Positions 1-38,700 of a stretch of 54,742 bases of DNA are shown here, in pieces (the stretch's first letter is position 1; every line of letters starts with the position of its first letter). Made by a program: the position numbers and the translations under genes. Source of the DNA: a virus (Duplodnaviria > Caudoviricetes); the IMG/VR virus record IMGVR_UViG_3300021961_000129, positions 1 through 54,742 of that record, one strand, 5' to 3'. The notes beneath the pieces were generated by a model. That model did no database searches, was not told the DNA's origin, and saw only the letters and a program-made list of their open reading frames with translations.

Positions 1-1716
1 AACTACTATTGGTTTAGATGGATCAGTAGGACTTGGATACCACTGCATTATAACTGCGCCTGGATAGAACTTCTCAATTTCCGCTTTTACTTCATCTCTT
101 GATGGTTTTTTCATTGATGGGAAGAAAAGTTGAAGACTCATCATTGGTCTACCTCTCCATGAGAAGAGTATAGTATAAACATTACCAGTAGATTGTAGTC
201 TTTGATAGTCTTCGGTTCTCAATTGTCCAGGTTGGATGACAGAATCAGCAAGTGGTGAAGATGGGCCACTTAACTTCTTCATTGCAGCAGCCTTTTCTCC
301 TGCATTAGTTGTGCCCTTTGCAAGGTTTCTAATCTTTGCAGTTCTTTGTGCCTGTCTGTGGCCACCACCAATCTCAAAACTCACATTTTCATTTGCTGGA
401 TGAATCTCATTTGGATCATAAGGATTCGGATCTAATGATGCAGGTATTGAGAACATCTTCCAATAACCTTCACCATATTTGCATTCTTTTGCAGTTTGTT
501 TTTTCTTACACTTTGGACAATATCTTACAACCTCTCCCATTTCTTGGATTTGTTGTTTGGTTGTTCCCGTTACAATTGGATCTGGTTTGATGATATCTAC
601 AAACTCATACTCAGTTGCTTTAAAGTCATCTCTCCAATTGGAGAACTCATAACCTTCTTTCTGAGTCTTGTTGCCCCAGTTCTTTGCACCAACTTTACGG
701 CACTTAACTAATGCACCAGATGCATATGCAGAAGGCCAAACCTTATAACGAGATTTTACCTTTGAGTAACATGCGTCTTTCTCTTCAGTCGCAACCATCT
801 TAGCCTTACCCTCTCTGTCGGGATTTGGGTCTTCTTCATTTTTGCGACGGAATGCTTTTTCCTCTTCCTTATCGGAGAGAGCTGCCTTCATTTTGCTGGA
901 ACCACACTTTGGTTTTGTGGTTTGTCCTGGTTGTTTTGCACAGGGTTTTCCTGCGTATTTACCGCCCAGTTGAACCCAACCAGGGGTGCCATCAGAAGCG
1001 CGACTCTTAGTAAACCAGTCACGCAAAGAATTATCACCACTTTTGTTTTCATTAATAGACTCCTCCTTCACACAATTGGGAACTACTTTTTTTCCCTTCT
1101 TTTTCATTCCAAGTTGTTTATATCCATCCCAACATTTTTCTTCAATTTTTTTCTTACGGCCTTGACAATGAGCTTTCTGAGAAAATCCTTTTGGATTATC
1201 GCAATCAATTGACTTCTTATATTTCTCAGACCAATCTTCCTTTACTTTTTCCACCTTTTTTAATTTGGAGTAATAGTTTGGAAGTTCGTCAAGATGTTGG
1301 AGTGCAATCTCTTTTGCTACTTGATTATCAGTAGTATGTTCATGTTCAACTTTCATCCCCATCTCAAGCTGTTTTTCAATTACTGATGGAGATACTTTAT
1401 GCTTTTTTGCGATTTCTTCTACCGACTTATACGACTTGAATGATTCTTTTACTTCCTTCTTTTTCTCAGTATCATCTTCGCCACCATCCATGTGGTCAGC
1501 TACTGTATCAAGATACTCAGATGCCTTAGTGATCTTGGATTGAACCCATGCTTCAAGATCACCCTCACCTTTGAGGTGACGCATCAATCTTTCAATCGCA
1601 GATTTTGCAGTCTTAAGTTCTCCACGAGCCATGGAAAACTCAAAGTCTTCTCCGAGAGGTGCGATAGTTTCTAGGTCTGAGAGAATAGACCATTCCTTAA
1701 AGGTGAGTTTATCCAT
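1..1716 (-). CDS. Modular putative head-packaged protein (>=572 aa, runs off the window edge; absent from ORF track)
   Basis: Manual translation from ATG at 1716 (MDKLTFKEWSILSDLE...) stays open to base 1. It contains short modules (KVEHEHTTDNQVAKEIALQHLDELPNYYSKL, DUF5661-like from memory; EDWSEKYKKSIDCDNPKGFSQKAHC; KCWDGYKQLGMKKKGKKVVPNCV; KDACYSKVKSRYKVWPSAYASGALVKCRK) separated by xxE/EE linkers. Lies downstream of gp16. Confidence 0.85.
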   Translation of the reverse strand, partial: MDKLTFKEWSILSDLETIAPLGEDFEFSMARGELKTAKSAIERLMRHLKGEGDLEAWVQSKITKASEYLDTVADHMDGGEDDTEKKKEVKESFKSYKSVEEIAKKHKVSPSVIEKQLEMGMKVEHEHTTDNQVAKEIALQHLDELPNYYSKLKKVEKVKEDWSEKYKKSIDCDNPKGFSQKAHCQGRKKKIEEKCWDGYKQLGMKKKGKKVVPNCVKEESINENKSGDNSLRDWFTKSRASDGTPGWVQLGGKYAGKPCAKQPGQTTKPKCGSSKMKAALSDKEEEKAFRRKNEEDPNPDREGKAKMVATEEKDACYSKVKSRYKVWPSAYASGALVKCRKVGAKNWGNKTQKEGYEFSNWRDDFKATEYEFVDIIKPDPIVTGTTKQQIQEMGEVVRYCPKCKKKQTAKECKYGEGYWKMFSIPASLDPNPYDPNEIHPANENVSFEIGGGHRQAQRTAKIRNLAKGTTNAGEKAAAMKKLSGPSSPLADSVIQPGQLRTEDYQRLQSTGNVYTILFSWRGRPMMSLQLFFPSMKKPSRDEVKAEIEKFYPGAVIMQWYPSPTDPSKPIVV

Positions 1717-5109: not shown

Positions 5110-5940
5110 TTAACCTATGAGATCAAGTGGTGGTAGTTCGTACTCGTCCTTAAGTTGTTGTTCCAATTTTTCTACTTCCGCAACACCATCGTCATAAATT
5201 TGTCTTCCATTCAACTGAACTCCACCTGGAAGTAAGACTCCATTGAATTTAATCATGTTCTGTCCCCACTGTTTCTTAATCAGAGCCGTGAGGTATTTCT
5301 TCAACCACCAATCGTTGTAGAGTTTTGGTGCATCTGAAGGATCCACAATTCTATAACAATCAATAATTACATATTCATTTTCACCTACTTCAGACCAATC
5401 AATATCTAGATATAACTTGTGATTTTTCTTGTTAAAACGAATCTGTGCATGAGGATTTAAGAGGAAATCTAGATCCTCCAAATATCTCTTAACCATTGCG
5501 TAATTGAGAAGATCCAATGCACCATAATAATAAACATCATTCAAGAATAATTGATATTTAATATTAAATAAACCATCTGAAACTGTACTTGAATTTATCT
5601 TAAGAATATTATTAACACCAATGATTGAATCTGGAAGTGGAAGATAATTGACTCCTTCCACATAAGTAAGAGAAGTTAGTCCAGCTCCAACGACACTACC
5701 TGAAGTAGATGCAGAACCTACTGGACCTGGTTGAGCTAAGGTTGTTTTAGTTGCTGGAGTAAGTTTATGTTTTAGAAATACTCTGTCTATCCCATCATAA
5801 TGACGTTCATGATAATATTGAATTGCATCATCTATCAAGTTGTCAATCTGATCATCGTCTACATTTATTTCTAAAACCGGCTTACCTAGTTGTTTGAGGC
5901 AGTAATCTTTCAATTCCGCTCTACTAGATGGCTGCGCCAT
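5110..5940 (-). CDS. gp13: Neck protein
   Basis: LKDYCLKQLGKPVLEINVDDDQI and WLKKYLTALIKKQWGQNMIKFNGVLLPGGVQLNG motifs. Confidence 0.95.
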   Translation of the reverse strand: MAQPSSRAELKDYCLKQLGKPVLEINVDDDQIDNLIDDAIQYYHERHYDGIDRVFLKHKLTPATKTTLAQPGPVGSASTSGSVVGAGLTSLTYVEGVNYLPLPDSIIGVNNILKINSSTVSDGLFNIKYQLFLNDVYYYGALDLLNYAMVKRYLEDLDFLLNPHAQIRFNKKNHKLYLDIDWSEVGENEYVIIDCYRIVDPSDAPKLYNDWWLKKYLTALIKKQWGQNMIKFNGVLLPGGVQLNGRQIYDDGVAEVEKLEQQLKDEYELPPLDLIG

Positions 5941-5972
5941 AAAAAAATACCCCTAGTTTCCTAGAGGTATTT
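5941..5972 (-). terminator. Intrinsic terminator-like hairpin after the tail fibre gene, abutting the gp13 ATG
   Basis: Minus strand ATACCTCTAG-GAAA-CTAGGGGTAT followed by a T run. Confidence 0.7.
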
Positions 5973-5992: not shown

Positions 5993-8900
5993 TCACTCTC
6001 CCTTTAGTTTTTTAATTTCATCACGAAGTTCGTTGATTTGAACTTGTTGTTCTTTAATTGCTTCAATTAGTAATGCAGTTATATTTGAATATGCAACTGA
6101 TTTATGACCATTTCCGTCCGTTGTGACGAGTTCTGGTACAACTTCTTCAACTTCTTGTGCGATGACACCAATTTCAGTTCCGGGGGTCTCAAGTCTTTCA
6201 AACGTTACGCCACGCATGTTGAGAACCTTATCAAGAGCATCTTGAATGGTTTCAATATTCTTCTTGAATCTTACGTCAGAAGAAGCAGTTACGGTTCCTC
6301 CAACCGTCATATTGTTATTTGAAAGATCAATTTGCATGGGCCATACGGAGTTGACCTGTGCAGGAGTTAATGTATCGTTTCCACCACGTTTTACATAGAA
6401 TATACCAGCGTTGTTCTCAATCATTGCTGAGGCACTTGCAGTTGCTCTCAGATAATAGATTGGAGCAGAAGCTCTTAGTTCTACTAAACCTTGTGCAAGT
6501 CTGTTATTTGTGTCAGCAGTAATATCATGAGTAGCTGCTCTGTGAGTTGTTGCGTCAACTCTTGCACCAGTAATGTTACCAGAAGCATCTCTAGCGACAA
6601 TTGTGTTCGCTGTTGCGGCAGTTGCAGAATTTAATCCATCAAGTAAATCAGCACTTAAATTGGTTACGGTAGTTGTTGAAGTAACTGTTAGTGGAGCAGT
6701 TCCAGTTGCAACCGTAGATGTTAAAGTTGTTGCCGAAAGAGCACCAACAAGGGTTAGCGCGCCTGCGCCCGTGAGAGTTGCAGCAAGAGTTGTTCCACCA
6801 TACCACTTAAATGATTGTGTAGTAGTTGGAACTCCAGACCATAAACTACCACTTTCAATACCAAAAGCATAATCCGCAGCAGAAGCGGTAATCGCATTAT
6901 TGAGAACAATCTTAGCGCCAGCACTTCTATTGGTGAATGCAGGTGCAGCCGAACCAGTTGTTCCAAAATCAATCCAGTTACTTGTGGCTCCAGAGAATGT
7001 CAAATCTCCAACTGTTGTTGATCCAGCGGCATTAAGGGTTATTTTACCTGCAGTAAAGTTTCCTGAAGTATCTCTGGCAACAATATTCGCGGTTCCGTTT
7101 GTATAAGTTGAAGAGGATAATAAACCATTATGTAACTGTGCATTTAAATTTGTAACCTCAGTAGTTGAAGTGATTGATAATGGAGCAGTACCTGAAGCAA
7201 TGTTAGAAATTAATCTAGTACCAGTTACTGTGCCTGTAAATGAAGCATTTCCAGAATTTCCGAGAGTAAATACATCAGTTCCACTTGCGTTTCTACCAAT
7301 TAAACTGGTCGTAAACTGTAAATATAGGTTATTTGAAGAGAATTGAATCTTACCAGCCTTTTCTCCAGTCCAAGTTCCAGTAGTGAAAGAGATATCATGA
7401 TTTGCAGCGACTGCTATTGACTGTGTGGTTAATAGTCCCTCTAAAACTGGTGTAGTTGTAAGTGTATATGCAGAACCATTGCCAATAAGTACGGCTCCAG
7501 CAGATGGAGCAGCTGCCAATCCAGTTCCACCTCTTGTTACAGGAATTGTTCCTTGGTGATTAGTAACATCTAAATGATAAGCGGAGTTATTTCCACCCAA
7601 TGTAGCAGCGTCAACATCACCACCAGCAGTAGAAGTTTTAATTTGAATTTGGCCATCACTTCCCACATTAAATGTAGATGTCTTAAATTGAGCAACACCT
7701 AAGGTTGAATATGCATCAATTGTGGGTAGACATCTGTTAAGTCTAATTTCAACATTACCATAATAAGTATTAATTCCAACTCCAAAAGGAGCATTATCTA
7801 CAGAAGTCGCAAAAACTTGAACTGGTTGTGTAGTACCAAATCCAACCGATCCAACTGCCTTAGCCCACTTAGAATCACCTCTTAGATAAGTTTCATTGTT
7901 TGCACTTCCACTACCAGCAAGTCTTGTTGTATTAACAACACCGGATATGATGTTAGAAGCATCAATATCACCACCACCAACTGCTGCCCAGTTTGTAGAC
8001 TCTTGTCCAGATGTATTAACAACATCTGTGAAACTTATATTTTGTTTTGTATAAGAAACAATACCAGTTCCATTGGTTCCCAATGAGATTGGGTCTAAAA
8101 TTAGACCATTAATAGAAGCAAGAGCAGCATTTCTACTTGGATGTAGTGTAAAACTATTTGTGGTTGCAGAACCTACAAAGTAGTAATATCCAGTAGTGAG
8201 TCCAGTTGGTAGTGATCCCACTCCAGCAGCCGCATTAATTTGAACAGGATCTCCCTGCGTAAATCCATGATTAACAAGAATAAGTTGTTGCGTGTTGGTA
8301 ACAACACCAACTCTTGTAAAGGACTGAACACCGGTTCCAGAAGCCGTTAAATCAATTTTAGAATCAGCGCCGACGGCATAGTTTGAGTGAATAGTATAAG
8401 AACCAATTCCGACTTTTTTAACATAATAGATTGTATCTGCAATAAGAGGAGATATTACAGTACCAGTAGTAGTGTATTTAACCGGATCGCCATCACCAAA
8501 TGGTTGGAATGTACTTGTAATTCTATCATTAGTAAAGTCTACATTACCACCGACATCAATACCAGTACCAGTGAAGGAGAAACTGGTACTAATTCCAAGA
8601 TCAGTGGAAATAGCAACTGCATTTCTATCTACAATATAGTCTGGAAGTGCCGTTGTTGGAGCAAATTTTACACCGTTTAAAAGATTAATATAAAGTCTAG
8701 TTTCTACGCTAGCAATTTGAACTGTAAAGTTTGATCCACCAGTTCTACCTCCAATTGGTGTGGGATCATTAACTGTTAATACATCATTAACAGCAAAATA
8801 ACGTCCTCCAGTATTAATAGCAACTGCTTGAACTGTTCCAGCAGCACTAACTGTAATTGTACCAGTAATTCCTGTACCAATACCACTAGCAGTATCAAAT

Positions 8901-11900
8901 CTTACTCCAGTATAAATTCCTGCCTGAGTATATCCAGATCCACCAGTAATATTCTTAAGTGTTAGTGCAACACCTCTAACAAGACCTGTAGTACCATATC
9001 CAACATTAGCAAATGTTAATCCAGTATTTGTTGCAATACCAAGATTGGTATTGACTCCAATATAAGGAGGTCTTGTAACAATACCGGTAACTTCTCCTTG
9101 GTTTAGAACACTCTTAACTACATCACCATCTTCGAAATTATATACAGTATTATTATTTAAAATTAAATATTGAGAATATGTGTCACTAACAAGTACATAT
9201 GGGGATTGTGGTTCAACAACGGTATCACCATTTCCCAGTTTTGTAACTGGAACTTGGTTATGTAGTTGTAGTCTACCAAAGTTATATGGAGTTCTATAAT
9301 AGTTGGAAACTTTTGGTGGAATGAGGTCAGAGTTAATTTGTCCAATTGCATTTAATTGAACAATCGCGTTTGGAATTGCGTTGGTTGATACTGATTTATC
9401 AATAAATCCACCAAGTCTATTATTTAAGAATGTTCTAATAGCTAACTGAGTGGAAACTCTCTTATTAAGTGGTCCTCCTAGTTCATTATCACCCATTCCT
9501 CCATCTGCGGAGAATTCTTCGATCGCAATACCACCAGAAAGTGATAATCTAATAGAATCAAGAGTACCAATGGTTACGGTATTATTAAAGATAATGTTAC
9601 CAGTTCTATTGAATGCAGTAATAAAATCACCAATCTTAAAGTCTCCAAGTTCGTTAGTACCAGATGAGTAAACACGGCCACCTCTTTCACTAACTTGTTC
9701 AGACTTCGTTACTGTTCTACCTCCATTTTGTGGAAGAGCATTATAGTCAATACCTGAACCAGAATATTCCCATGTATGAGAAGAAGAGTTAATAATAGAT
9801 GGTCTGTGCCAGTGTAACTTATAAGTTTCTGGTAGATTTTGAATACCCTGGATTGATTGTCCAGGTAAAGTGGAATCAATCTTGGAATTAGTTGTCCAAT
9901 AACTGGTAATTCCAGCTACAACTGTTACTCCAACTCCAATCGGTGTCTCACTGTGATCTTCTAAATCAAGTACGGTCAATCCATTTGAAACCGCAAAGTT
10001 TCTTCTAGTTCCCTGAGAAAGTTCAACAGAAACGAGTAATTTTCTAGTGGTTTGACTATAAGTAACGGCAATACCGAGGGCTGTTCCGCCGACAACTGTT
10101 TGTGTAATTTCTCTACCAGATACAAAGTTGCAGGTAGTTCCAATACCAGCTGCAAGAGTTAACTCTTGATATGTATTATGTCTATCAATAACGGAAGATG
10201 CGAAGAACTCAAAAGTACTCTTCTGAATAGTATGAATACCAGTAGAAGCAGAAGTTAAATCAACAATTCTTGTTAAACTATCATCTTCAGCAAGTCGGAA
10301 ACTATTAGAATCCACGTAAATAACATAATATTGGTTACCATTAACAAGACCTCCAATAATTCTATTTGGAATTACTTGTTCATCACCAAAGTAAACTACT
10401 GTATCTCCATTACTAAATGGATGACTATTGATATTAATAGTATCCGCAGAAATATTAACTACTCCACCAGCAGTAACTGCAGTTCCAACAAATTCGGAAG
10501 TTACTGGAGATGCCTTAAAGTTTGAAGTTACATCTTGGTTTGCATTGTTAAAGATTCTTGCAACATATAAATCTTGATCAGATCTACCCAAACCAACAAT
10601 CTTCAGAGTAGTTAATCCACCTGAAGTACCAGTTGCAGCAATTCTTCCTCTATCAAAAGCAAATGAATTTGGACTGAATCCAGTAGATCTTAGAGCATAT
10701 AGTCCAAAGTTTGTTGCAGAGTTTGTAATGGATAGATATCCACCAGACTGCGTTAGTGAACCATATCTGCAGAAGATTTGGAAACAAGAAACAACCTGTG
10801 CATAACCATCATTGATAGTTCTCCATCCAATACCACCAAAGGAAACCATGGTAAATGCAGCAGCAACCATGGACTTACCTTGTTCTGGTTGATCGCCAAC
10901 TAGAGGGGTTTCAGCTTCCTGTTTAATTAGAGGAGTGTTGGGTGATTGTACTTTAGAACCATCAACAAGAATACCATTTGCACCTAAGAAAGATAGAATA
11001 GAACAGTTCTGGATATATGGCGATCTTGTAATGAGTGGTTTGTCACTCTTAGTTGCATATCCAATTCTAGAAGTTAGAGAATCATTTGGATCATCAAATG
11101 CTATCGCATAATTCCAAGTACTTAATGGCACACCTGCGGCATCAATACGATCCTTCATTGCAAAACCAGTTACATATACACCATTTCTTACACGGAATAA
11201 ATCTTTGCCGTTATTTAATGGCCTAATAATCGTATTTCTTAAGTTATCGCCAACAATTGCAACGTCATCATATAGAAGAATTGGGTTGTCTTCTATATAT
11301 TCACCAGCTTCAACGATGATGCAAACTGGTTTGGATTGTGTTTGTGGGAATACTTTAGTTGGTGAAGCGGTTGTTCCAAATCCTACGATTGTAGTGATAA
11401 TTCCAACATAGTTAACAATCGCACTTCTTACATCTGCACAATCAGTAAGACCCAAATTAACTGAAGTAATTCCTGACAAACTTCCACTTAATACTGCACC
11501 CGTCAAAATTCCTACCAGAGAATCAATAGTAGAACGAGTGTTTGCACAAACATTTACATTCTTGTTTGTTGATCCAACAGAAACATCATTTTGAATTGTT
11601 AGATCTTGATAATTTAGCCAGTTAACTACTGCACGTTTTGCATATTTTCCTAGACTTGTAAATGCATATGCAGAGGCAACTTCTTCACCTAGTAATCCGT
11701 TTGTCTTTGCAGCACCTGCACCATCAAAGTATCTCTTAGTTGCATAAACAGTATGTTGATTTGTACCATAAGCAACGTCCTGTGCAATAGCATCAACAAT
11801 ATATCCAAGATCTCTAGCACACTTTCTACCGCCAACAACGTTAGTTGATCCAATGCCAACTTCAAATCCAGAAACATTTTTAACATTATATGTTGAATTA

Positions 11901-14900
11901 ACAACAAAATAACCATAATTTGTTGTTGTACCTATTCCAGCAGTACTACCTGAACCGATTGCTGTTGTAACAATTCCGGTAAGAGTAGTAATAGTGGATT
12001 GAACATTAGAACAAGAAGAAGGATCAGTGTTAAATCCTGTTACTGCATCAGCAGTAATGGTTAAATCTCTTTGATTGAGTTGGTTTGTTATAGCCAACTT
12101 CATGTAATCCCTTGCCTTTTCAAATGCATAATTTGATTCTGTTGTCTCACCTACTAGTCCGTTGGTAATTGGTTGACCTAATACGTTAAAATAGAATCCA
12201 GTGAAGGAACGAACGTAGTTATTACCACCGGTAAATACGTCAGTAGCGACTGCCTCAATAAAGAGACTTAGATCTCTTGCACACTTAGTAGATCCAGGAG
12301 AAGATGTGGATCCAATTCCAGAAGTTGCAATTGCGCCTGCAGAACCACTAATTAATAAATTATCAATGTTATAGTAACCAGTGTTTATACCTGTTATTCC
12401 ATTAGAAGTACCGGCACCAATAGTTACTGTAACGATTCCTACGAGAGAATCGATATTAGATCTTACATTTGCACAAGAAAGGGTACTTCTATTATAATTT
12501 GTAAGTGGATCTGGAGTTAAATATAGATTCTGATAATTTAGGTTATTTGTAATTGCCATCTGCATGTATCCAGATGCAGACTTGAATGCATATACGGACT
12601 CGTCTCTTTCTGTGGATCCAATTCCTGTTGGATTTCCGTTACTATAGTAGTAAAGAGCAAACTCTCTAGAATACTTATTACCTCCAGTAAATACGTCAGT
12701 TGCAACAGCATCTACTAAGTATCCTAAATCTCTAGCGCACTTACGTCCTCCTGAAGATCCGGTACTTCCAACGCCAACAGAAGCAAAATATCCATAATTA
12801 GCTGCCGGTAAGGATGAAGTATTTCCTGCTCCAATAGATACTGTTACAATACCTACAAGAGTGGTTACGTTATTTTGAACATCAGTACATGCAATTGTAC
12901 TGGTAACTCCAATAGTCGCACCTCCACTATTGTATAGTGCAGGTCCAGTAGTAATTCCACGGTCTTGGTAATTTAATTGGTTAGATACTGCACCTCTCAT
13001 CAAGGTCATTGCAGATCTAAATGCATAGATTGATTGCGATTCTTCACCTATTAAACTGGTTGTTCCGATACCGGCAAAATAAAATCCGGTAAATTCTCTA
13101 GAGTAACTATTACCTCCAGTAAATATGTCAGCAGAAATAGCATCAACAAAATACCCAAGATCTCTAGCACATTTTTTGAGTCCAACTGGATTTGTTGTTC
13201 CTACACCAACACTAGAACCAACTTCCCATAAATCATAAAGACCTAGATTTATAGCTGGGAAGGTACTAGTATTTCCTGCACCAATTGCAACAGTAGCTAT
13301 ACCAGTTAGAGTTGCGATGGTATTTTGAACATCTGTACATGAAGAAGGACTGGTATTGGAAACATTAGTACCTCCTCCATAAACAGTTGGTCCAGCAGTT
13401 ACTGTTAAATCTTGGATTGTGAGTTGGTTTGAAACTGCGGACTGCATTCCAACTCTTGCTTGATCGAAAGCAAATCTCGTTTGAACTTCTTCACCAGCTA
13501 AACTTGTAGAACCTACACCAACAAAATAGAATCCAGTGAATTCTCTAACGTAGTTGTTGCCTCCTGTAAATACGTCAGCAGAGATAGCATCGACAAAATA
13601 TCCAAGATCCCTCTTACACTTATCTTGTGTAGAAGTTACTTCTGGATATTGATAAACCGTGGCTTCCCAAGCATTATCAATGATTTGTTGTTTGTTTTGT
13701 TGGATTAAACGGTATGCATCTGCATAACGAGATCTTTCCGTTGTTTGAGCTTCTCCTGGTACATAGAAATCGGAATATCCAACGGCTACAGAAGCAAGAG
13801 CCTTATCTACAATTTCTTGTTTGTTCTTCTGAATTAATCTATATCCATCATAATATCTAGATCTAGCATTTGTTTCTGGATCACCTGGGAAATAGAATGG
13901 ATTTGAAGAATCAACATAAACTGCAACAGAAGCAAGAGACTTATCTACAATTTCTCTCTTATTTTCGACAATTAAACGATATGAATCGTAATATCTAGAT
14001 CTTCCGTTTGATGCTGCATCTCCGGGGAAATACCAACTTGAGGGGAAACCTACAGCAACAGATGCAAGAGACTTATCTAAAATTTCTTGATTATTAACTG
14101 TAATTAATTTATGTGCATCGTAATATCTCGACCTTTCATTACTTTCAGTTTCTCCTGGGAAGAAGAATGTTGATCCTACCCCGACAGCAACAGAAGCTAA
14201 AGATTTATCAATAATTTCTTGTCTATTTCTAACTATTAAATTTCTAGCATCTTTTGATCTATGGAAATAATTTGCATTGTTGTTAAGTGGATCGGAAACT
14301 TGGTCATAGTCAAATGATTGAGATACTGTAGTTTGATATAATGTTGGAGGAGTTTGATTGTTAATACAGTATTGAGCAATAAATTTTAAATAGTCTAACG
14401 CAAATATTACTAACTCTTCTTCACCATCAACGTAAGATTCATCTGGATCTGCAACGATATTCCAATAATCAAATCCATTTTCAACTGATTTAGAGTTTCC
14501 ACCAAATCTAACATCATATGCTAGAGCATCAATAGCATTTCCTATTCTCGTTCTAAACGTGGATTGCTCATAATCTGGATAATCTGTAGCAATATTTTCA
14601 AAATTAAATTCTAAGTATGATATTACTTCCTCTTGCATGAAGGTCTTATTGGCATCCAATAAGTCTCCAGCATCAAGATATCTTTGTCCTGGAATTACAA
14701 AACTATCAAAAGAAGCTAACTGAGCAGCTCTCTTAATTGTTCTAACTGGTAGAGATTTGCCATTATAGGCATCATCACCATTTTGTGCGGAAACATAATA
14801 TCTATTTTCAAAAAGACCCGCACCATTAGTAGTAAATCCTAATGTACCATCCGGATTCAATCCTAACAATTGTCCAGCAGTACCTTTAGTTGCTGGTAGA

Positions 14901-16834
14901 GTTAACGTATAGTTAGTTGCAACTCCAGAATTTGAAAGTTCAATTTTTACGGATTTGTCCTGATCATCCAACTGTGTATTAATTCCAACAAAGGTAAGAG
15001 TACTTACACCTACCCTATTAAATGTAGTTATACCTGTATATCTTACATTGGATCCAACTAGATTTGTAATTGTACCAGTATCTGAAATAAAGGTTGAAAC
15101 ACCAGTAATTGTAGCATCATCACCAGAAATACGAATCGATGCACTTCCTACAGTAAGAACACCAGTAATTCTTGCGTCACCTTCAATGATTACGTCAGTA
15201 TTTCCAATACCAACAGTCATACTGCCGATAGTTGCAATACCACTATAATTGATGTCAGAACCATTCAAGTAAGTTATTACACCAACAAATGATTCTAATC
15301 TTTGTATAGTGCCAACTCCAGTTGCATTAAAATAGGTCGCAAAACCAGTATTTGTATATGATGTACTAATAAATGCTGTACCTAATGTTGAGAATCCTAC
15401 TCTAGATGTTGTGGTAACTCCAGAATTTATATAAGCATCACCAATCCAAACTTCATCGATATTACCTACAGTACCAACTCCAGTCGAATAATACAAGTCA
15501 TTAACATAAGCAACACTAGAAACGCCTATAGTAGTAACAACTCCCGAATTTATTCTAGCATTATTAATCCATGCAGTGTCTTGAATATGGACTTCCGTAG
15601 TAACACCTACGTTAATATATGCATTAGTAATTGAGCTTGTCTGGGAGTTGAAACTTGTAGCTATACCCGCGTTTACATTAAGATCGTTTACATTCGCAGT
15701 TTCTATATTGACATCAGTAACGATACCAGAACTTATATAAGCCTGATCTACATGCAAATTTGTTACATTTAAATCAGTTATTATACCAGAAGCAGAATAT
15801 AAATTAGAAACTGATAAATTTGTTGTATATAAATCTGTAATTATACCGGAAGCAGAATATAAATCAGAAACTGATAAATTTGTTGTATATAAATCTGTAA
15901 TTATACCTGAAGATATGAAGGCATTTGTCGAAAGTAAAGTATCCGCTGTCAATCCTGTAATAATGCCAGTAGTAACATATAGATCATCAATATATGCACT
16001 TGAAATTCCTGCTGTTGTTAAAACTCCAACATTTATGTATACATTATCTATAGAAGCTGTTGAAATTCCGGCAGAAGTTATGATTCCAGAATTGACAAAT
16101 AATTCAGCAATATTTGCACTTGAGATTCCAACAGTTGTTAAAATACCAACATTTATGTATACATTATCTATAGAAGCTGTTGAAATTCCGGCAGAAGTTA
16201 TGATTCCGGAATTAATAAAAGCATCTTGTGTGTAAGAAGTTAAAATTCCAGCTTCGCCAATTACAGCTCTAACCGAGTCTAAGAAAGGAGCTATTACCTC
16301 CCCGGCAAGTGTGTCGGTAAAGACAATATCAGCGGTAATTATTCCAACAACATTGTTATGTGGTGATGATACTTCAATGCTGCCGATACCAACTGATAGT
16401 ACTGTTGCACCTACACCGATATAGTCGGAAATTGGTTCAGTAACAAGATAACCTGGTCTAATATTATTTGTAGCAATTCCAGTAATAACATATGGATCAA
16501 GTTCATCCAGAGTACCCTGTCTTACAACTTCTGGATCATAAAATATATTTAAACTTCTTGCCGCTATATTACCCTCAAGAAGAGAGTTACCTACTACTAC
16601 TAATTTATAGTCATTGGTTGTAGTTGTACCAATTCCGATAAAAGCCTTATTTACAATTCCTTGTTCAACAGTTGAGCCAAATCCAGATCCAACTAAATAG
16701 TGACCGCCTGGGTTTACCCCATCATGAACAACCGCTACATCATATGTAGTATCAATAGTTAATTCGCCAACCGCTCCTGTAAAAACCTGATGTTCTGCTG
16801 TGGTTCCTCTTCTAAGCTGTACCTGCTTGGTCAT
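5993..16834 (-). CDS. Giant tail fibre/adhesin (3613 aa): Mtd-like N-terminus, 20-aa beta repeats, pectin-lyase-like domain interrupted by phycobiliprotein-like repeats, C-terminal S74 intramolecular chaperone
   Basis: MTKQVQLRRGTTAEHQVFTGAVGELTIDT (Mtd-N-like); YYVSAQNGDD..PVRTIKRA ... IIVEAGEYIEDNPI..VGDNLR (split pectin-lyase/DUF1565-like start); SDVRFKKNI..IGVIAQEVEEVVPELV..ALLIEAIKE (S74). Confidence 0.9.
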   Translation of the reverse strand: MTKQVQLRRGTTAEHQVFTGAVGELTIDTTYDVAVVHDGVNPGGHYLVGSGFGSTVEQGIVNKAFIGIGTTTTNDYKLVVVGNSLLEGNIAARSLNIFYDPEVVRQGTLDELDPYVITGIATNNIRPGYLVTEPISDYIGVGATVLSVGIGSIEVSSPHNNVVGIITADIVFTDTLAGEVIAPFLDSVRAVIGEAGILTSYTQDAFINSGIITSAGISTASIDNVYINVGILTTVGISSANIAELFVNSGIITSAGISTASIDNVYINVGVLTTAGISSAYIDDLYVTTGIITGLTADTLLSTNAFISSGIITDLYTTNLSVSDLYSASGIITDLYTTNLSVSNLYSASGIITDLNVTNLHVDQAYISSGIVTDVNIETANVNDLNVNAGIATSFNSQTSSITNAYINVGVTTEVHIQDTAWINNARINSGVVTTIGVSSVAYVNDLYYSTGVGTVGNIDEVWIGDAYINSGVTTTSRVGFSTLGTAFISTSYTNTGFATYFNATGVGTIQRLESFVGVITYLNGSDINYSGIATIGSMTVGIGNTDVIIEGDARITGVLTVGSASIRISGDDATITGVSTFISDTGTITNLVGSNVRYTGITTFNRVGVSTLTFVGINTQLDDQDKSVKIELSNSGVATNYTLTLPATKGTAGQLLGLNPDGTLGFTTNGAGLFENRYYVSAQNGDDAYNGKSLPVRTIKRAAQLASFDSFVIPGQRYLDAGDLLDANKTFMQEEVISYLEFNFENIATDYPDYEQSTFRTRIGNAIDALAYDVRFGGNSKSVENGFDYWNIVADPDESYVDGEEELVIFALDYLKFIAQYCINNQTPPTLYQTTVSQSFDYDQVSDPLNNNANYFHRSKDARNLIVRNRQEIIDKSLASVAVGVGSTFFFPGETESNERSRYYDAHKLITVNNQEILDKSLASVAVGFPSSWYFPGDAASNGRSRYYDSYRLIVENKREIVDKSLASVAVYVDSSNPFYFPGDPETNARSRYYDGYRLIQKNKQEIVDKALASVAVGYSDFYVPGEAQTTERSRYADAYRLIQQNKQQIIDNAWEATVYQYPEVTSTQDKCKRDLGYFVDAISADVFTGGNNYVREFTGFYFVGVGSTSLAGEEVQTRFAFDQARVGMQSAVSNQLTIQDLTVTAGPTVYGGGTNVSNTSPSSCTDVQNTIATLTGIATVAIGAGNTSTFPAINLGLYDLWEVGSSVGVGTTNPVGLKKCARDLGYFVDAISADIFTGGNSYSREFTGFYFAGIGTTSLIGEESQSIYAFRSAMTLMRGAVSNQLNYQDRGITTGPALYNSGGATIGVTSTIACTDVQNNVTTLVGIVTVSIGAGNTSSLPAANYGYFASVGVGSTGSSGGRKCARDLGYLVDAVATDVFTGGNKYSREFALYYYSNGNPTGIGSTERDESVYAFKSASGYMQMAITNNLNYQNLYLTPDPLTNYNRSTLSCANVRSNIDSLVGIVTVTIGAGTSNGITGINTGYYNIDNLLISGSAGAIATSGIGSTSSPGSTKCARDLSLFIEAVATDVFTGGNNYVRSFTGFYFNVLGQPITNGLVGETTESNYAFEKARDYMKLAITNQLNQRDLTITADAVTGFNTDPSSCSNVQSTITTLTGIVTTAIGSGSTAGIGTTTNYGYFVVNSTYNVKNVSGFEVGIGSTNVVGGRKCARDLGYIVDAIAQDVAYGTNQHTVYATKRYFDGAGAAKTNGLLGEEVASAYAFTSLGKYAKRAVVNWLNYQDLTIQNDVSVGSTNKNVNVCANTRSTIDSLVGILTGAVLSGSLSGITSVNLGLTDCADVRSAIVNYVGIITTIVGFGTTASPTKVFPQTQSKPVCIIVEAGEYIEDNPILLYDDVAIVGDNLRNTIIRPLNNGKDLFRVRNGVYVTGFAMKDRIDAAGVPLSTWNYAIAFDDPNDSLTSRIGYATKSDKPLITRSPYIQNCSILSFLGANGILVDGSKVQSPNTPLIKQEAETPLVGDQPEQGKSMVAAAFTMVSFGGIGWRTINDGYAQVVSCFQIFCRYGSLTQSGGYLSITNSATNFGLYALRSTGFSPNSFAFDRGRIAATGTSGGLTTLKIVGLGRSDQDLYVARIFNNANQDVTSNFKASPVTSEFVGTAVTAGGVVNISADTININSHPFSNGDTVVYFGDEQVIPNRIIGGLVNGNQYYVIYVDSNSFRLAEDDSLTRIVDLTSASTGIHTIQKSTFEFFASSVIDRHNTYQELTLAAGIGTTCNFVSGREITQTVVGGTALGIAVTYSQTTRKLLVSVELSQGTRRNFAVSNGLTVLDLEDHSETPIGVGVTVVAGITSYWTTNSKIDSTLPGQSIQGIQNLPETYKLHWHRPSIINSSSHTWEYSGSGIDYNALPQNGGRTVTKSEQVSERGGRVYSSGTNELGDFKIGDFITAFNRTGNIIFNNTVTIGTLDSIRLSLSGGIAIEEFSADGGMGDNELGGPLNKRVSTQLAIRTFLNNRLGGFIDKSVSTNAIPNAIVQLNAIGQINSDLIPPKVSNYYRTPYNFGRLQLHNQVPVTKLGNGDTVVEPQSPYVLVSDTYSQYLILNNNTVYNFEDGDVVKSVLNQGEVTGIVTRPPYIGVNTNLGIATNTGLTFANVGYGTTGLVRGVALTLKNITGGSGYTQAGIYTGVRFDTASGIGTGITGTITVSAAGTVQAVAINTGGRYFAVNDVLTVNDPTPIGGRTGGSNFTVQIASVETRLYINLLNGVKFAPTTALPDYIVDRNAVAISTDLGISTSFSFTGTGIDVGGNVDFTNDRITSTFQPFGDGDPVKYTTTGTVISPLIADTIYYVKKVGIGSYTIHSNYAVGADSKIDLTASGTGVQSFTRVGVVTNTQQLILVNHGFTQGDPVQINAAAGVGSLPTGLTTGYYYFVGSATTNSFTLHPSRNAALASINGLILDPISLGTNGTGIVSYTKQNISFTDVVNTSGQESTNWAAVGGGDIDASNIISGVVNTTRLAGSGSANNETYLRGDSKWAKAVGSVGFGTTQPVQVFATSVDNAPFGVGINTYYGNVEIRLNRCLPTIDAYSTLGVAQFKTSTFNVGSDGQIQIKTSTAGGDVDAATLGGNNSAYHLDVTNHQGTIPVTRGGTGLAAAPSAGAVLIGNGSAYTLTTTPVLEGLLTTQSIAVAANHDISFTTGTWTGEKAGKIQFSSNNLYLQFTTSLIGRNASGTDVFTLGNSGNASFTGTVTGTRLISNIASGTAPLSITSTTEVTNLNAQLHNGLLSSSTYTNGTANIVARDTSGNFTAGKITLNAAGSTTVGDLTFSGATSNWIDFGTTGSAAPAFTNRSAGAKIVLNNAITASAADYAFGIESGSLWSGVPTTTQSFKWYGGTTLAATLTGAGALTLVGALSATTLTSTVATGTAPLTVTSTTTVTNLSADLLDGLNSATAATANTIVARDASGNITGARVDATTHRAATHDITADTNNRLAQGLVELRASAPIYYLRATASASAMIENNAGIFYVKRGGNDTLTPAQVNSVWPMQIDLSNNNMTVGGTVTASSDVRFKKNIETIQDALDKVLNMRGVTFERLETPGTEIGVIAQEVEEVVPELVTTDGNGHKSVAYSNITALLIEAIKEQQVQINELRDEIKKLKGE
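11370..14690 (-). repeat. Six nested phycobiliprotein-like protein domains within the tail fibre
   Basis: Five N-halves (RxxDxxxLIxxNxxEIxDKS) in tandem at ~13660-14270, then five C-halves with KC(A/K)RDL (Cys codons near 13617, 13170, 12738, 12282, 11820), all enclosed by an outer domain. Confidence 0.75.
15781..16207. repeat. Near-identical tandem DNA repeats (60-bp and 120-bp periods) in the tail fibre shaft
   Basis: 15781-15840 vs 15841-15900 differ at 2 positions; 16027-16087 is identical to 16147-16207; they encode SGIITDLYTTNLSVSxLYSA / SGIITSAGISTASIDNVYIN repeats. Confidence 0.9.
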
Positions 16835-16870
16835 AGTACTATACGACTCAAATTACTATTTCTTCTGATA

Positions 16871-16877
16871 TATTTAT
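16871..16877 (-). promoter_or_regulatory. Late promoter upstream of the tail fibre gene
   Basis: ATAAATA on the minus strand within the dyad CTGATA-TATT-TATCAG. Confidence 0.65.
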
Positions 16878-16888
16878 CAGATAAAAAA

Positions 16889-32737: not shown

Positions 32738-35700
32738 TTAGTTACTTAAAAGTCCCCTTGTTCTAATAACCTTAGGAGAAGTTGATAAACCACTTATTCC
32801 ATTAAGAGTTTCCGCAAAGAATTTAGCTGGCCCACCTTCAGATAAAGATCTATTTTGGAAATCATAAATTTTACCCCAACTATATCTACCATAAAAATCA
32901 TTTGTTCCAATTCCACTATTATTTTCACCCCTCTTATAAACTTTAATATAATTATCGGTCATTGGAGCAAAATGACAGGTAACTGTAACTATTCCAGAAT
33001 TTGGAGTAGTTACATCTTCAACTCTGTATACTCCATCAATAAAAGTCTTTGCAATTCCAATAATTGAATTTGGAAATTGTCCCATTCCTCCCAATAAAGT
33101 GCTTATTCCTATTAGACTTCCACCAGTTAGTACATTGCTGTCGGTAATCACAAAATAATCTCCTTTTTCCAATTGACTATTATTGATACCAAAAGAACTT
33201 AAAGCAGAATACCCTACTCCTAAAGTACTATTATCATAAGTTTCAGATTTTAAAACAAATTCTATCTTTGGTGATGTAGTTCCTATTCCAGGTGTTCCAG
33301 AAATAAAAGTGTTTATTCCAATAATAACTCCATGATCTCCTTTAACTTTTACCGATCTTATACGCTCAGACGAGAATCTGTCGGGTTCTATCATTACAGC
33401 AGGAGGTTCTGATTGCGAATATCCAAATCCTCCATCAATAATAGTTATTGAAGTTACTATTCCTGTAGTAGAGTTGACTCCAGAAACTGCAGTGGCTCCA
33501 TGGACAACTGGTTCTGAATATATCGCAGTGCCTGCGGATCCTACAGCAATGTATCTACCATTTATACCTAAAGAACTATCAAAAACTAAATCTACAATTG
33601 CATTAGGTTGTAATGTTGATCTTGGAACCCAATTCAATAAGTCAAAAGAATAGAATATATTCCCTAAACTGTTAACAACAACGTAAAAACCATAATTGTA
33701 TTTTATGTTGACCAAATCATCGGTTAAATTGGTAGATAAAACTTCATAAGAATCTCTAGTTATAGATCTCAAAATAACACCATTATTTCCAACAATAATA
33801 AATTTATTTTCCGCATATATAACCTTATTTAAATTAGTTACTACGGGACTTTGATTCAATTCCCAAATTAATCCAGTGTTTGAAGAAACTATAGTACCAT
33901 CATTTCCAATTGCTACAAAATAATCTACCCCAAAAGTAACACTATTGAGATCTCTAAGAGTTCTGGAGAACCTGTTTATAAATCTATCCGTATGTATTCC
34001 AGATCCAACAAATATTGATCCTGCAGCTCCAACAGTAACCCAAGTATTGGATGTTGAACTATAAACAATATCATTAAGAGTTCCAGAATAACCACTTATA
34101 CTTTGGCCAGCAACTCCAAAACCAGGAATAGAAATATCAACATATTTGTCTATCTCAGTCCAAGTAGAAATAGTATTCGAATATCCTACCGATTTTGCTA
34201 TTTTTCCAAAAGATCCTACAGAAATAATAATATCAGAGTTTCCAACTCCAACAGAATATAAAGACTTAAAGTTTGTTGTAGCGCCCAATCCGATATTTCC
34301 AGTTTGCCAATTTATACCATCTTCACTGTCTGCATACAAAGAACTATTACCAACAGCAATTACTCTCTTGCCAAAAATTATAGAATTAAATCTAGAAAAA
34401 GTAGTAATTCCGATAATATTGTCAGATCCTTTCCAGTTATAAATTGGATCTTTAATTTTTATAGCAGAGACTGATATGTTAACTACTGGAGAAAGAGAAA
34501 TTCCATATCCAACTCCAGGATATTCTATATTAATTGCAGAAACGGAAGAAGCAGAGGAAACCACGGAAGTTGCTTGAGCTGGTTCAATAACTTTACTATC
34601 AAAGATAACAACATCTCTCAAATCCTCCGACAAACTATCGGTTCCATCAAAGAATGGGAAAACATTATCGACATAAATTTGTGTATCTTCAAGTTCAACA
34701 TTTCTTATTAATGATGCATTTGGTTTTATTATACTCTGCAAACTTGGTCTTGCTTTTGAATATAATGTTCCATTAATTATCCTATCTTTTTTCTGTTTTC
34801 TCCAACGCAATGGTCTATTTTTAGTCGAATCTGTATCAATACCAACACTACTGTAAGTGAATGTATCTAATTGATCTGAAGAAGTTATTTTTTTAACAAC
34901 TCTTTCAAATTGTGTAATATCAAATAGATCATCTGCACTTTCCTCAATAATAATTTCATCTCCGATTTTAATTGTTTTTGGTGGATCCACTTCCTCAACA
35001 TCAATTGATGATCCTCTATAATATAATATGGTACATTTTGATCCTGGTTTTGGTGCCTCTTTAAATGAAACTCTACTTCCTTGGAATGTATAGGCGTCAA
35101 TGGGATTTTGTAATATATCATTAATAAAGATGAAAATATTATTTGTTATATCCAAATCAGACCCAGTAAGTGTTTTAAGACTTAGAATTTGTTTAACACC
35201 ATTTACTTCAACTACTAAACTAAATTTCTTTCGGAATCCATTGAAATTTGAAGAAATATCTTCGAATAGAATAAACTGACCAGGATAGAAGGAATGGAAT
35301 TTATCAGTTTCGACTTCTTCAACAGTAATTCTAAATTCACTAAACCCAACACCAACATTTGGATCTGTTGTTATTCCTGAGACTTTAAGAATATCGCCAA
35401 CTCGATATCCTTTGCCAACCTCATCAAATTTGAATGATATTATACTAGATCCCATACCAACTTCAACAGTAACCTTTGCATCCTGACCAACTCCAGAACT
35501 TCCAGTTATATAAGAAACCGGTAGATTACTATATCCAGTAGGTATACCAATGTTTATAATTGGTAAAGATGTTGATGTATATCCAGAACCAGCATTTACA
35601 ATTGTAAATCCAGTAATTGTACCACCAGAACCAACTGTTGCTGTAAAACTAGCTCCTGTACCAATGGTGGAAGCGATACTAATTGCAGGAGGATTTCGAT

Positions 35701-38700
35701 ATCCACTTCCATTTCCAATAAGTGTTATTGTGGAAATAGTTCCAGAAGCAGAAACAGATACAGTTGCAGCTGCCCCTATTCTTGGTTGATACCCAAATCC
35801 TGTGGTAATTGCAACTTTGGATATTCTTCCTGCAGATGGAGTACCAGATAAGAATCTTATTACATTATTCGGAGTTCCATCAATAGTAAAATCTGATTGA
35901 GGAACTTGGAAAACATTGTTTATAAAAACAAATGGATTATTGCTAATATTTGTTGCACTATTAACATCATTAAATAACACTTCAGTATTTTCACCACCAG
36001 ATTTTAAAGTAAATTCTGTGGCTGCTATTCCTGTAAAAGATAAAGATATATCATCAACTATAATATTTTTATTTTTCGGTTCCGAAGCATCAAAAGATCT
36101 AGAAAAAACTCTTCCCGCAAAAATTGACCCTGTTTGTAGTCCTATTGGTCCTATTTTACCATAAGGAGCTGTACTAAAGTGAATAATATCCTTGACAATA
36201 TTGAAATTACCAGTTAAAACTGTACCAGAAACTCCAACCGTATGAATTCCGGTGTTACTTCCTAAAAATCCTCTTTCAACTTCAACAAAATTGGAAGAAG
36301 TCACTCCAGAAGACTTTACTAACATATACTCTTCACTAAAATTCAAAATATCTCCTGTTTTTAATGAAGATATTCCTGAAGTTATTTCCAAAATTGTTGT
36401 TGATGAAGTAGAAACTGGAGATCCTAGATTTACAATTAAAGATTTTCTCGTTAAAGGGCTTTGAACTACACCATCAACAGATATTATTGAACTGCTGTTT
36501 GGATCTTTATAACTAAATATATGATTCCCTGTACCAAGTCCAGTAATATCTAGAGTTGTACCAGAAGTAGATAATCCAAAAAGTCTAAATTGATTATCAT
36601 TTAATTTAAAGACAAATAGTGACTTAGGAAGTACATTTGTTCCCAATTCTGAAGGACTGAAGGATACATAGTCATTTGTAGATCCCCCAAGATATGTACC
36701 AGCAACAGATATTATAGACGTATATGCATATCCAGAAGCTCCATATACTACTTTTACATCCGAAATATAACCAGAATTATTTCTAGTTATATTAAATAAA
36801 GATCCACTAAGATCTGTAGAAGGCACATTTGTATAAACTTCATTTGCTCTAGTTTGAATTCCTGTAGGTCCGACTTTCGAAACAACAAAACTGAGATCGT
36901 TTGTTGGTGAACTCCCTCCCAAATAAGTTCCGGCTACAGAAACTACATCACCAACAGAATATCCTTCACCACCAGAAACTAAAACTAAAGAAGTTGAAAT
37001 TGGTTGGCCGGTAGTAACATTATAAGAAATGAAAGCATTAAATTTAGCATCTGTACCTATTCCACTTGTGGCCAATCCAACAACTTGGAGATATTCTCTA
37101 AAACTTGGCCCAGCAGGAACAAGTACTGTAGATATTCCCGTTATAGATGTTTGTATAGCTACTGGATATCCTTGTTCCAATATTGCAGTTCCTGTTAAAT
37201 TGGAGTTATCGATATTCATTAAAACAGAAGTAATACCAATAACATATGAAGTTGTGGCGATTCCAATAGGACTTCCATCTGTTTCATATATTAATTCGTG
37301 ACCTGTTTGGAAATTGTGATTTGGAACAACAAAGGTATTTGTTTCTGATGATATTCCATTAACACCAGAATTAGAAGATTCGATAATATGGCTAAAGAGT
37401 GGAGTTCCTTTATTTTTTAATTTAAATGTACTTAGTCCAACTATTTGACCACCTCTGGTTAAAGATGGATAAATTATGGAACTTGGTGCTGCAGTAGTTC
37501 CAATTCCAATTATTGATGTTATTATTCCAACATAATTTCCTATTGCAGTCCAAACATCAGCACAACAATTTTCACTATACGTAGGACTACAAACTTCATC
37601 AGATAAAATTCTAGAATCTATATATTGTGTAGTTGAAATAAAAGCTCTTTGAATTGAACCGCCATTTACATAATTATGTGTTATAGTTGATGGTCCTGGA
37701 TTTATTCTAAATCTTGTGGAATCAATAATTTCAACTTCATAAACAAATCCTTTTGGAGACAATGGACCATTTCCATCTGGACCATTCCCCAAATTCGGGA
37801 AAATAGCTGTGTTTATTCCGCCGCCAGAATCACAAGAAAATACCAAATCTTTCAACACAACATAATTTTTTGTTGTAGTAGAAAGTCCATGACTAGTTGT
37901 GGTTCCTACAGTAGCGATACCAGTTATGTTATTATAAACAACAGAAGAAACTCCAACAGTATTTGCAAGTTGATATGATGTTTTCACACCAACGTTATTG
38001 ATAATATATTTCGATAAATCTACGATATATTTGAATCCAGATATAGTTTCTATAGTTTCTCCACTTACGTAATTTGTGCCAATTCCACTCCAATAAGCTA
38101 ATCCAGCTTCTATTGATTTATTGTTTGATTTATATTTAACATCATGAGAAACTGCATCGATAATATATCCAACATCCCTTTTACAAATACTTCTATCCCA
38201 GTCAATATTTGTAGTTATTCCTGGATAAGTAGCTGTGATAAATCCAACAACTTCTTCCATGATAAAATCTCTATTTGACTGAAGTAAATCGGAAGCATCA
38301 GCATATCTACCATCTACTTGCTGTAAAGAAGATCCATCAAATTGATCCGATATATCGTCAATTCTAAGAACTTTATTTGTTTTATTAAGAATAAATGGTC
38401 TTAGATTGATTCCATCATTAAAATAAACCGATTCTACGGAACCATCTTCTAAAGTAGTATCTTCATACACTCTAACAAAATTTGGCCTATCATACATAGA
38501 AATTTCATTATCAAGATTAATACTTAAAGAAGAATCAGTTTGTAATATCTTAGGCTTCATGTTAGTTGAATTGGAAGATCCAACAACTGTAGGTTCAGTA
38601 TAAATTACAAGATCGGAAAACTCTTTAAATCCTGAAGGGTGTACTGTAGATCTTACAGATTCTCTCCATATGTTATATGGAACATCGCTCTTTATAGAAT

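Follow-up and report, generated by a model that had tools for sequence, protein, structure and literature searches.

The available text of a 2026 survey of 2.7 million ECOD domains (PMC13114784) describes SI3, an insertion in the cyanobacterial RNA polymerase beta-prime subunit (RpoC2), as a set of recursively nested sandwich-barrel hybrid motif (SBHM) domains, with strings of the form A1-B1-C-B2-A2; at six levels, SI3 is the deepest and most complex case there, and host and guest belong to different families in 65.8% of insertion events. Here, we report a giant tail-fibre gene of a cyanomyovirus in which another domain family appears to have been inserted repeatedly into itself. The gene lies on IMG/VR record IMGVR_UViG_3300021961_000129, the whole of which (54,742 nucleotides, a 54.7-kb fragment) was analysed and is called the window below. 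We conclude that amino acids (aa) 718-1826 of the fibre protein are very probably (about 0.85) a recursively nested array of six phycobiliprotein-like, globin-fold domains, in which N-terminal halves (N-halves) are laid down in succession before the C-terminal halves (C-halves) that complete them.

SI3 and the phage nest are alike in that one domain family is inserted repeatedly into itself. They differ in fold and setting, SI3 being built of all-beta SBHM domains in a cellular enzyme and the nest of all-helical, globin-like domains in a virion fibre; the phage family is also deeper, with up to 10 successive N-halves before the first C-half, and its nest appears to have two insertion sites within one domain. 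Single-level insertions (A1-B-A2) likewise consist of a host domain interrupted by a guest with close termini, but they usually stop at one level, whereas the phage nest would comprise six levels of one family. With phycobiliproteins (C-phycocyanin alpha, phycoerythrin, allophycocyanin, and ApcE) the nested domains share the fold (Z 14-16), the Pfam family, and a K-C-x-R-D motif that falls on Cys84-Arg86-Asp87; identity is just 11-18%, however, and the phage domains sit in a virion protein, not in an antenna. ApcE bears a loop insertion between helices B and E, the same site as in the phage nest. Other giant cyanophage virion proteins (P0047 and P0116 among our representatives) carry 10-20 copies of the same N+C unit, about 30% identical, but there the units are consecutive (NCNCNC...) instead of lying inside one another. 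Recursive self-insertion is known already from SI3; the globin-like fold and the phage-fibre setting appear to be new, in that our literature searches found no description of phycobiliprotein-like or globin-like domains in cyanophage fibres.

Results

The fibre open reading frame (ORF) lies on the minus strand (Table 1) and is also matched by PHROG tail-fibre families. An earlier reading of the letters alone (the original prediction) had picked out positions 11370-14270, which correspond to aa 855-1822 of this ORF, as five N-halves followed by five C-halves with only the innermost pair, N5-C1, contiguous. Motif positions, DNA repeats, and profile matches elsewhere confirm this order, and N5-C1 is indeed the sole contiguous pair. 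The N-half motifs start at aa 859 (RSKDARNL), 903 (RYYDAHKL), 947 (RYYDSYRL), 993 (RYYDGYRL), and 1036 (RYADAYRL), within an N-half region of aa 857-1071; the KC[KA]RDL motifs of the C-halves start at aa 1073, 1222, 1366, 1518, and 1672, within a C-half region of aa 1072-1797. Lengths are 44, 44, 46, 43, and 38 aa for N1 to N5 and 149, 144, 152, 154, and 127 aa for C1 to C5, and pairwise identity ranges over 32-67% between N-halves and 40-62% between C-halves. At the DNA level, a short repeat is present in four copies spaced 129-138 nt (62-78% identical to the reference copy) and a long repeat in four copies spaced 432-456 nt (67-74%). The pattern is not due to chance, since hidden Markov models (HMMs) derived from the window also detect these units in metagenomic phage contigs unrelated to it (L003, for instance, with 2.5e-23 for N-halves and 5e-56 for C-halves).

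The repeat unit is a phycobiliprotein-like globin fold. Pfam Phycobilisome (PF00502) matches aa 1036-1098 with 24.5 bits against a cut-off of 22.2, in the window protein at the contiguous N5-C1 unit only, and many relatives, labelled "hypothetical protein" in their sources, carry a precomputed PF00502 match. A phmmer search of PDB sequences returned solely C-phycocyanin alpha chains as top matches (E 0.005). The N-half is aligned there with residues 39-64 (helix B) and KCKRD with K83-C84-A85-R86-D87, so the break between N-half and C-half falls in the loop before the Cys84 helix, which is where the original prediction had placed the insertions. Over 1068 distinct C-half rows of relatives, conservation is 97% for the Cys, 93% for the Arg, and 98% for the Asp.

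Structural comparison (VIA search) agrees with the sequence matches. The AlphaFold2 model of aa 991-1364 matched phycoerythrin 5aqd_M (Z 15.8; root mean square deviation [rmsd], 3.4; 143 aligned), far-red allophycocyanin 8or7_A (Z 14.6), and the ApcE bilin-binding domain 4xxi_A (Z 14.1; rmsd, 2.2; 118 residues), with sensor globins and haemoglobins ranking below the phycobiliproteins. A larger model (aa 901-1670) gave phycoerythrin at Z 15.6, allophycocyanin at Z 14.2, and ApcE 4xxi_A at Z 14.5. The top rows of a Foldseek search against the PDB were nearly all phycobiliproteins at E values of at least 0.064; no match there had an E value of ≤0.001, and the best was 0.064. Structural alignments mostly begin at chain residue 25-50, one row reaching residue 1 by way of a neighbouring N-half, and the models suggest that the N-terminal X-Y hairpin of phycobiliproteins is probably absent from the phage domains.

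Relatives of the nest are found in cyanophages and in metagenomes. When aa 700-1850 were searched with tblastn against 50,697 phage records, 160 records matched (by organism name, 95 Synechococcus, 54 Cyanophage, 10 Prochlorococcus, and 1 "Marine"), the best being Synechococcus phage DSL-LC03 (Kyanoviridae; 52.6% identity). N-half and C-half HMMs built from the window were iterated on 150 representatives that a scan of 1.84 billion proteins had yielded, and each protein was written as a string of N and C. Besides the window protein (P0001), 60 representatives had adjacent N-halves, of which 49 were kept after 11 fragments were left out. A second set was taken from IMG/VR contigs found in two pattern scans (45 ORFs, once incomplete or duplicate ORFs among 105 locus ORFs had been dropped), and a third from a 90%-cluster search (109 proteins, 108 with adjacent N-halves).

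Equal numbers of N-halves and C-halves in homologues, which the original prediction had set as a check on itself, were found in all three sets at depths of 2 to 10. Read as brackets, the strings were balanced and never negative in 45 of the 49 representatives (24 distinct architectures), in 44 of the 45 complete unique IMG/VR ORFs, and in 105 of the 108 further proteins, so that the grammar is kept in 194 of the 202 non-fragment proteins scored. Depths among the balanced representatives were 2 (n=20), 3 (12), 4 (7), 5 (2), 6 (3), and 10 (1). Shuffling the C counts among representatives gave equal N and C counts in a mean of 9.5 and a maximum of 19 proteins (10,000 shuffles), against the 45 observed. 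The strings include NNCC, NNNCCC, NNNNCCCC, NNNNNCCCCC, NCNNNNCNNNCCCCCC, and one of 10 N, 7 C, 2 N, and 5 C. Isolates follow the same grammar: S-PM2 p091 reads NC NNNN CCCC, S-RSM4_214 has seven N and seven C, Syn1_032 reads NNNCCC followed by two single N-C units, and DSL-LC03 and S-SCSM2R have the outer domain plus NNCC.

The types of the halves are ordered as well as their numbers. All 30 distinct homologues of two or three levels open their N-half series with an R.KDARNLI-type unit and end their C-half series with a YG.NQH (GTNQH) one, a palindromic ordering of types; N1 and C5 of the window protein are of these same two types.

Which N-half belongs to which C-half was addressed by residue coupling. 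The 30 strongest covarying pairs of an N column and a C column were taken from 635 dereplicated contiguous N-C domains, minus P0001 and P0002, and bracket partners were scored against every other assignment inside the same protein; proteins with more than seven or fewer than two non-contiguous pairs, and near-duplicates above 80% identity, were left out. In 44 of 49 dereplicated proteins, last-in-first-out pairing scored higher than the permutation mean. Where two pairs were non-contiguous, it won in 24 of 28 (nominal p 9e-5), and where there were three or more, it was the single best assignment in 7 of 21, with 2.2 expected (Fisher p 3e-4, nominal). For the window protein, it ranked 5 of 120 and first-in-first-out pairing 108 of 120.

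For structure prediction, sub-nests were folded with alignment rows of one depth, since homologues that differ in depth give no coverage of the middle units: a MAFFT alignment of 31 such homologues (A2) did not cover N2, N3, C3, or most of C2, and a pure-nest trial alignment likewise misplaced the middle C-halves. Alignment A1 (12 distinct rows from 27 loci, all of the same depth) was used to model N4-N5-C1-C2 (aa 991-1364; 13 sequences), and A3 (13 rows from loci with at least four levels, same depth) to model N2 to C4 (aa 901-1670; 14 sequences). AlphaFold2 gave the smaller model a mean predicted local distance difference test score (pLDDT) of 72.2 and a predicted template modelling score (pTM) of 0.75, and the larger one a mean pLDDT of 69.9 (N-half helices, 70-91; linkers, <50) and a pTM of 0.72.

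A discontinuous globin domain made of N4 and C2 predicts structural alignments that run from the start of N4 to the last helix of C2, as was seen in both models. On the aa 991-1364 model, Urechis haemoglobin 1ith_B aligned 134 of 141 residues over model positions 1..348 and 6td7_A aligned 120 residues over 2..350; on the aa 901-1670 model, erythrocruorin 1eca_A aligned 135 of 136 over 90..438 and neuroglobin 4b4y_A aligned 137 of 149 over 90..433. All four alignments run from the first N4 residue into the final helix of C2, and the aligned residues exceed what C2 alone could supply. The AlphaFold check that came with the original prediction, namely pairing from N5-C1 outwards to N1-C5, is thus borne out for N4-C2 in two models, while N3-C3 and N2-C4 rest on model confidence together with the comparative evidence. 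Comparative evidence, in turn, is what suggests that N1 pairs with C5 and that the outer domain is closed by the last helix. A two-chain prediction of N1 (alignment A4) with C5 (alignment A5), run without controls, scored 0.18 and 0.16 against a mark of 0.32 and counts neither way.

The outer, sixth domain was also anticipated, as a unit that starts at RYLDAGDLL, lacks the first Cys, and is closed by a CADVRSAIVNY helix. That description stands, but its start (aa 718, nt 14683) lies outside the 11370-14270 range given for the feature; the closing CADVRSAIVNY begins at aa 1799. The outer domain reads TFRTRIGNAIDAL where the other domains have KCxRDLGY, and the C-half HMM matches it in two parts, aa 764-828 (HMM positions 6-67) and aa 1798-1826 (HMM positions 88-116, the last-helix part). 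Homologues share its start (PG[QG]RY.DA), two of them (L008 and L014) keep CKRDVGY at the corresponding position, and the trailing TDCADVR..NYVGIITTI helix is conserved after the nest. Since the HMM match is split at this point and the same three outer-domain pieces flank two- or three-level nests in relatives, the outer domain would use a second insertion site, before its last helix.

Two side observations concern the relatives. In the ten-deep L078 (11816-13069; aa 1289-1706 of a 3366-aa ORF), and also in L086, an insert of a different kind, about 418 aa long, splits one C-half directly after its Cys helix, which makes a third insertion site; Pfam gave only sub-threshold matches for the L078 insert (Cthe_2159 carbohydrate-binding and Fn1_2). 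Representatives P0026 to P0151 include a large distant family (about 30% identity) of proteins of 1.3-6.4 kaa (thousand amino acids) with 10-20 contiguous tandem copies, often followed by a gap of 340-510 aa and then a few more copies.

Table 1. Coordinates, in the window, of the tail-fibre ORF and of the units of its nested array
Feature	Coordinates (nt)	Strand	Residues	Basis or remark
Whole tail-fibre ORF (cyanomyovirus)	5993..16834	(-)	3613 aa
Domains of the tail-fibre ORF			Mtd_N, aa 5-40; nest, aa 718-1826; Peptidase_S74 chaperone, aa 3519-3571	Peptidase_S74 is PF13884, E 2e-15 (Pfam search)
Outer (sixth) domain, first helix pair (RYLDAGDLL...)	14555..14683	(-)	aa 718-760	Iterated N-half HMM match at aa 718
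Outer domain, equivalent of helices E to G plus linker, without first Cys	14267..14554	(-)	aa 761-856	Partial C-half HMM match
N-half 1, outermost of five, proposed partner C5	14135..14266	(-)	aa 857-900	Motif and unit boundaries
N-half 2, proposed partner C4	14003..14134	(-)	aa 901-944	pLDDT 77-83 in four-level model
N-half 3, proposed partner C3	13865..14002	(-)	aa 945-990	pLDDT 70-87 in four-level model
N-half 4, partner C2	13736..13864	(-)	aa 991-1033	Globin alignments begin here and end in C2, both models
N-half 5, innermost, contiguous with C1	13622..13735	(-)	aa 1034-1071	Pfam Phycobilisome match crosses N5/C1 junction
C-half 1, innermost	13175..13621	(-)	aa 1072-1220	With N5, matches phycoerythrin and ApcE structures
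C-half 2	12743..13174	(-)	aa 1221-1364	Motif, unit boundaries, structural alignments
C-half 3	12287..12742	(-)	aa 1365-1516	Motif, unit boundaries, four-level model
C-half 4	11825..12286	(-)	aa 1517-1670	Motif, unit boundaries, four-level model
C-half 5, AYGTNQHT type, outermost of five	11444..11824	(-)	aa 1671-1797	Motif and unit boundaries
Closing helix of outer domain (DCADVRSAIVNYVGIITTIVGFG)	11357..11443	(-)	aa 1798-1826	Partial C-half HMM match

Several further features of the window's virion proteins were recorded. A second conserved Cys opens the last helix of every C-half and the closing helix (C..V...I..L.GI.T; aa 1166, 1310, 1454, 1608, 1763, and 1799; nt ~11438-13339), and it could possibly form a disulphide with the first Cys or serve as a second attachment site. 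Towards the fibre N-terminus, aa ~190-480 (window ~15400-16260) form a long run of ~20-aa repeats (…SGIITSAGISTASIDNVYINVG…, …ASGIITDLYTTNLSVS…), probably a beta-solenoid shaft. In the flank after the nest (aa 1827-2345), no Pfam family and no PDB sequence match were found. A second virion protein of the window, the product of a 4387-aa ORF (32738..45901), has one domain of the same family at 37457-38308 (-) (aa ~2534-2817), which is itself split into an N-half, the head of a C-half, a gap of ~80 aa, and a closing helix.

Discussion

Under the proposed architecture, the chain would lay down the front of the outer domain first and then five two-helix front halves (helices A/B), turn at N5-C1, the one contiguous domain, and on its return add five back halves, which comprise helices E to H and all begin with K-C-x-R-D. 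Every one of these would complete the most recent front half (N5-C1, N4-C2, N3-C3, N2-C4, and N1-C5), and a last single helix would close the outer domain. Five insertions would thus lie in the B-E loop, just before the Cys84-equivalent helix, and the sixth before the last helix. As the termini of each domain would lie opposite its B-E loop, repeated insertion would stack the domains in a line and bring both chain ends back to the point of entry, so that the whole array could sit as an insertion within the fibre; we infer this out-and-back stalk geometry, in which the arm length would depend on how deep the nest is (2 to 10 levels in relatives). We consider the array most likely to serve as a rigid side arm, or spacer, that presents conserved pockets and whose length can be tuned. 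One element of the original prediction falls away, namely that such a string requires coordinated duplication of both halves: a copy of the whole domain inserted into the innermost B-E loop yields the same string in one event.

A number of results weigh against the nested architecture. The alignments that span a discontinuous N4-C2 domain have Z scores of 6.0-6.8, a level common for helical bundles; confidence is middling for the two models alike (pLDDT of about 70, with linkers below 50), and the pairing was read from structural-alignment ranges and confidence only. Among the 50 matches listed for the aa 901-1670 model, no row spans N3 to C3 or N2 to C4, as the list is filled by the inner domain. 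In the coupling test, last-in-first-out pairing is 5th, not first, among the 120 assignments for the window protein itself; with training on nest-free proteins only, 42 of 49 proteins remain above the mean and the rank of the window protein falls to 27 of 120, and the p values are nominal because the proteins are related. Similarity inside the window protein does not help either: in a Mantel-type test, the N matrix fails to mirror the C matrix under nesting, the nested order ranking 35 of 120 when all columns are used and 6 to 37 when they are chosen differently, and the parallel order 11 to 31, a result that is dominated by linker context.

Exceptions to the bracket grammar belong on the same side. 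P0004 (2483 aa), with nine N-halves and ten C-halves, is the sole unequal relative that is well detected and apparently complete; its N-halves are nearly identical to one another, and the imbalance could plausibly have come from repeat collapse in assembly. For P0085, balance appears only once the threshold is relaxed, P0087 and P0146 come from a distant tandem family, in which N-halves often go undetected, and in L101 the ORF is split and the neighbouring frame contains the missing N-half. P0164, P0169 (3342-3347 aa), and P0231 are also unbalanced; the lengths of the first two suggest that they probably belong to the L078 family, where a split C-half can count twice.

Three other explanations for the equal numbers of halves were considered. 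The N-halves might complete the C-halves of neighbouring subunits by three-dimensional domain swapping, producing an interlocked bundle instead of three hairpin arms. Tail fibres with a C-terminal Peptidase_S74 chaperone are trimers, equal counts and residue couplings would look identical under such swapping, and the linkers are long and modelled with low confidence; nonetheless, monomer models with intra-chain packing reach a pTM of 0.72-0.75, and the one-residue kink at the N5-C1 junction fixes at least the innermost pair in cis, and we regard the inter-chain version as improbable. We give still less credence to a fibre in which the N-halves form a helical solenoid or coiled coil of their own and the C-halves are truncated four-helix beads, equal in number through side-by-side packing. 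The N-halves are indeed regular 44-aa tandem repeats, and the similarity comparison above does not follow the nested pairing, but the N-half is homologous to phycobiliprotein helix B and, in hundreds of tandem domains, runs straight on into a C-half; globin alignments extend over N4 and C2 together, balance persists in bracketed strings such as NNNCNNNCCCCC, and couplings learned from contiguous domains carry over to bracket partners.

That the equal counts arose by accident through repeat expansion, or through misassembly of one metagenomic contig, is hardly credible. The window is a fragment and repeats can collapse in assembly, possibly as in P0004; yet other contigs (P0002 and P0152) encode a protein of 96-97% identity whose string is again 5+5, cultured isolates obey the same grammar, and shuffled counts never match the observed agreement.

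A further question is whether the nested domains are working bilin-binding sites, which would make this a fibre with covalently attached phycobilins. We think this unlikely; it is suggested by the attachment motif kept in the C-halves, by a cpeT gene adjoining the fibre gene, and by the unexplained bilin-synthesis genes of phages. In the cultured cyanophages S-RSM4 and Syn1 (L108 and L109), the phycobiliprotein-lyase-like gene cpeT precedes the giant fibre gene with the nested domains by no more than about 1 kb, on the same strand (S-RSM4, cpeT at 5435-5959 and fibre gene at 6913-20361; Syn1, 7480-8019 and 8725-19689). CpeT (PF06206) was not found within the window's own record, itself only a 54.7-kb fragment. 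The role of cyanophage bilin-synthesis genes is called a mystery in the available text of one study (PMC3037559). If the sites do bind bilins, the tail fibre would be pigmented or light responsive, with the number of chromophores set by nest depth, and the auxiliary bilin genes of cyanophages would gain a purpose on the virion side.

Recursive self-insertion of a domain is rare, and here it would reach six levels in the window protein and ten in relatives. The family lends itself to studying the folding of discontinuous domains, the growth of nests, and the limits of insertion, and it is also a template for designing rigid arms of adjustable length. For the cyanophages themselves, it shows that their giant fibre and baseplate proteins consist in large part of a host-like light-harvesting fold that retains an intact chromophore motif.

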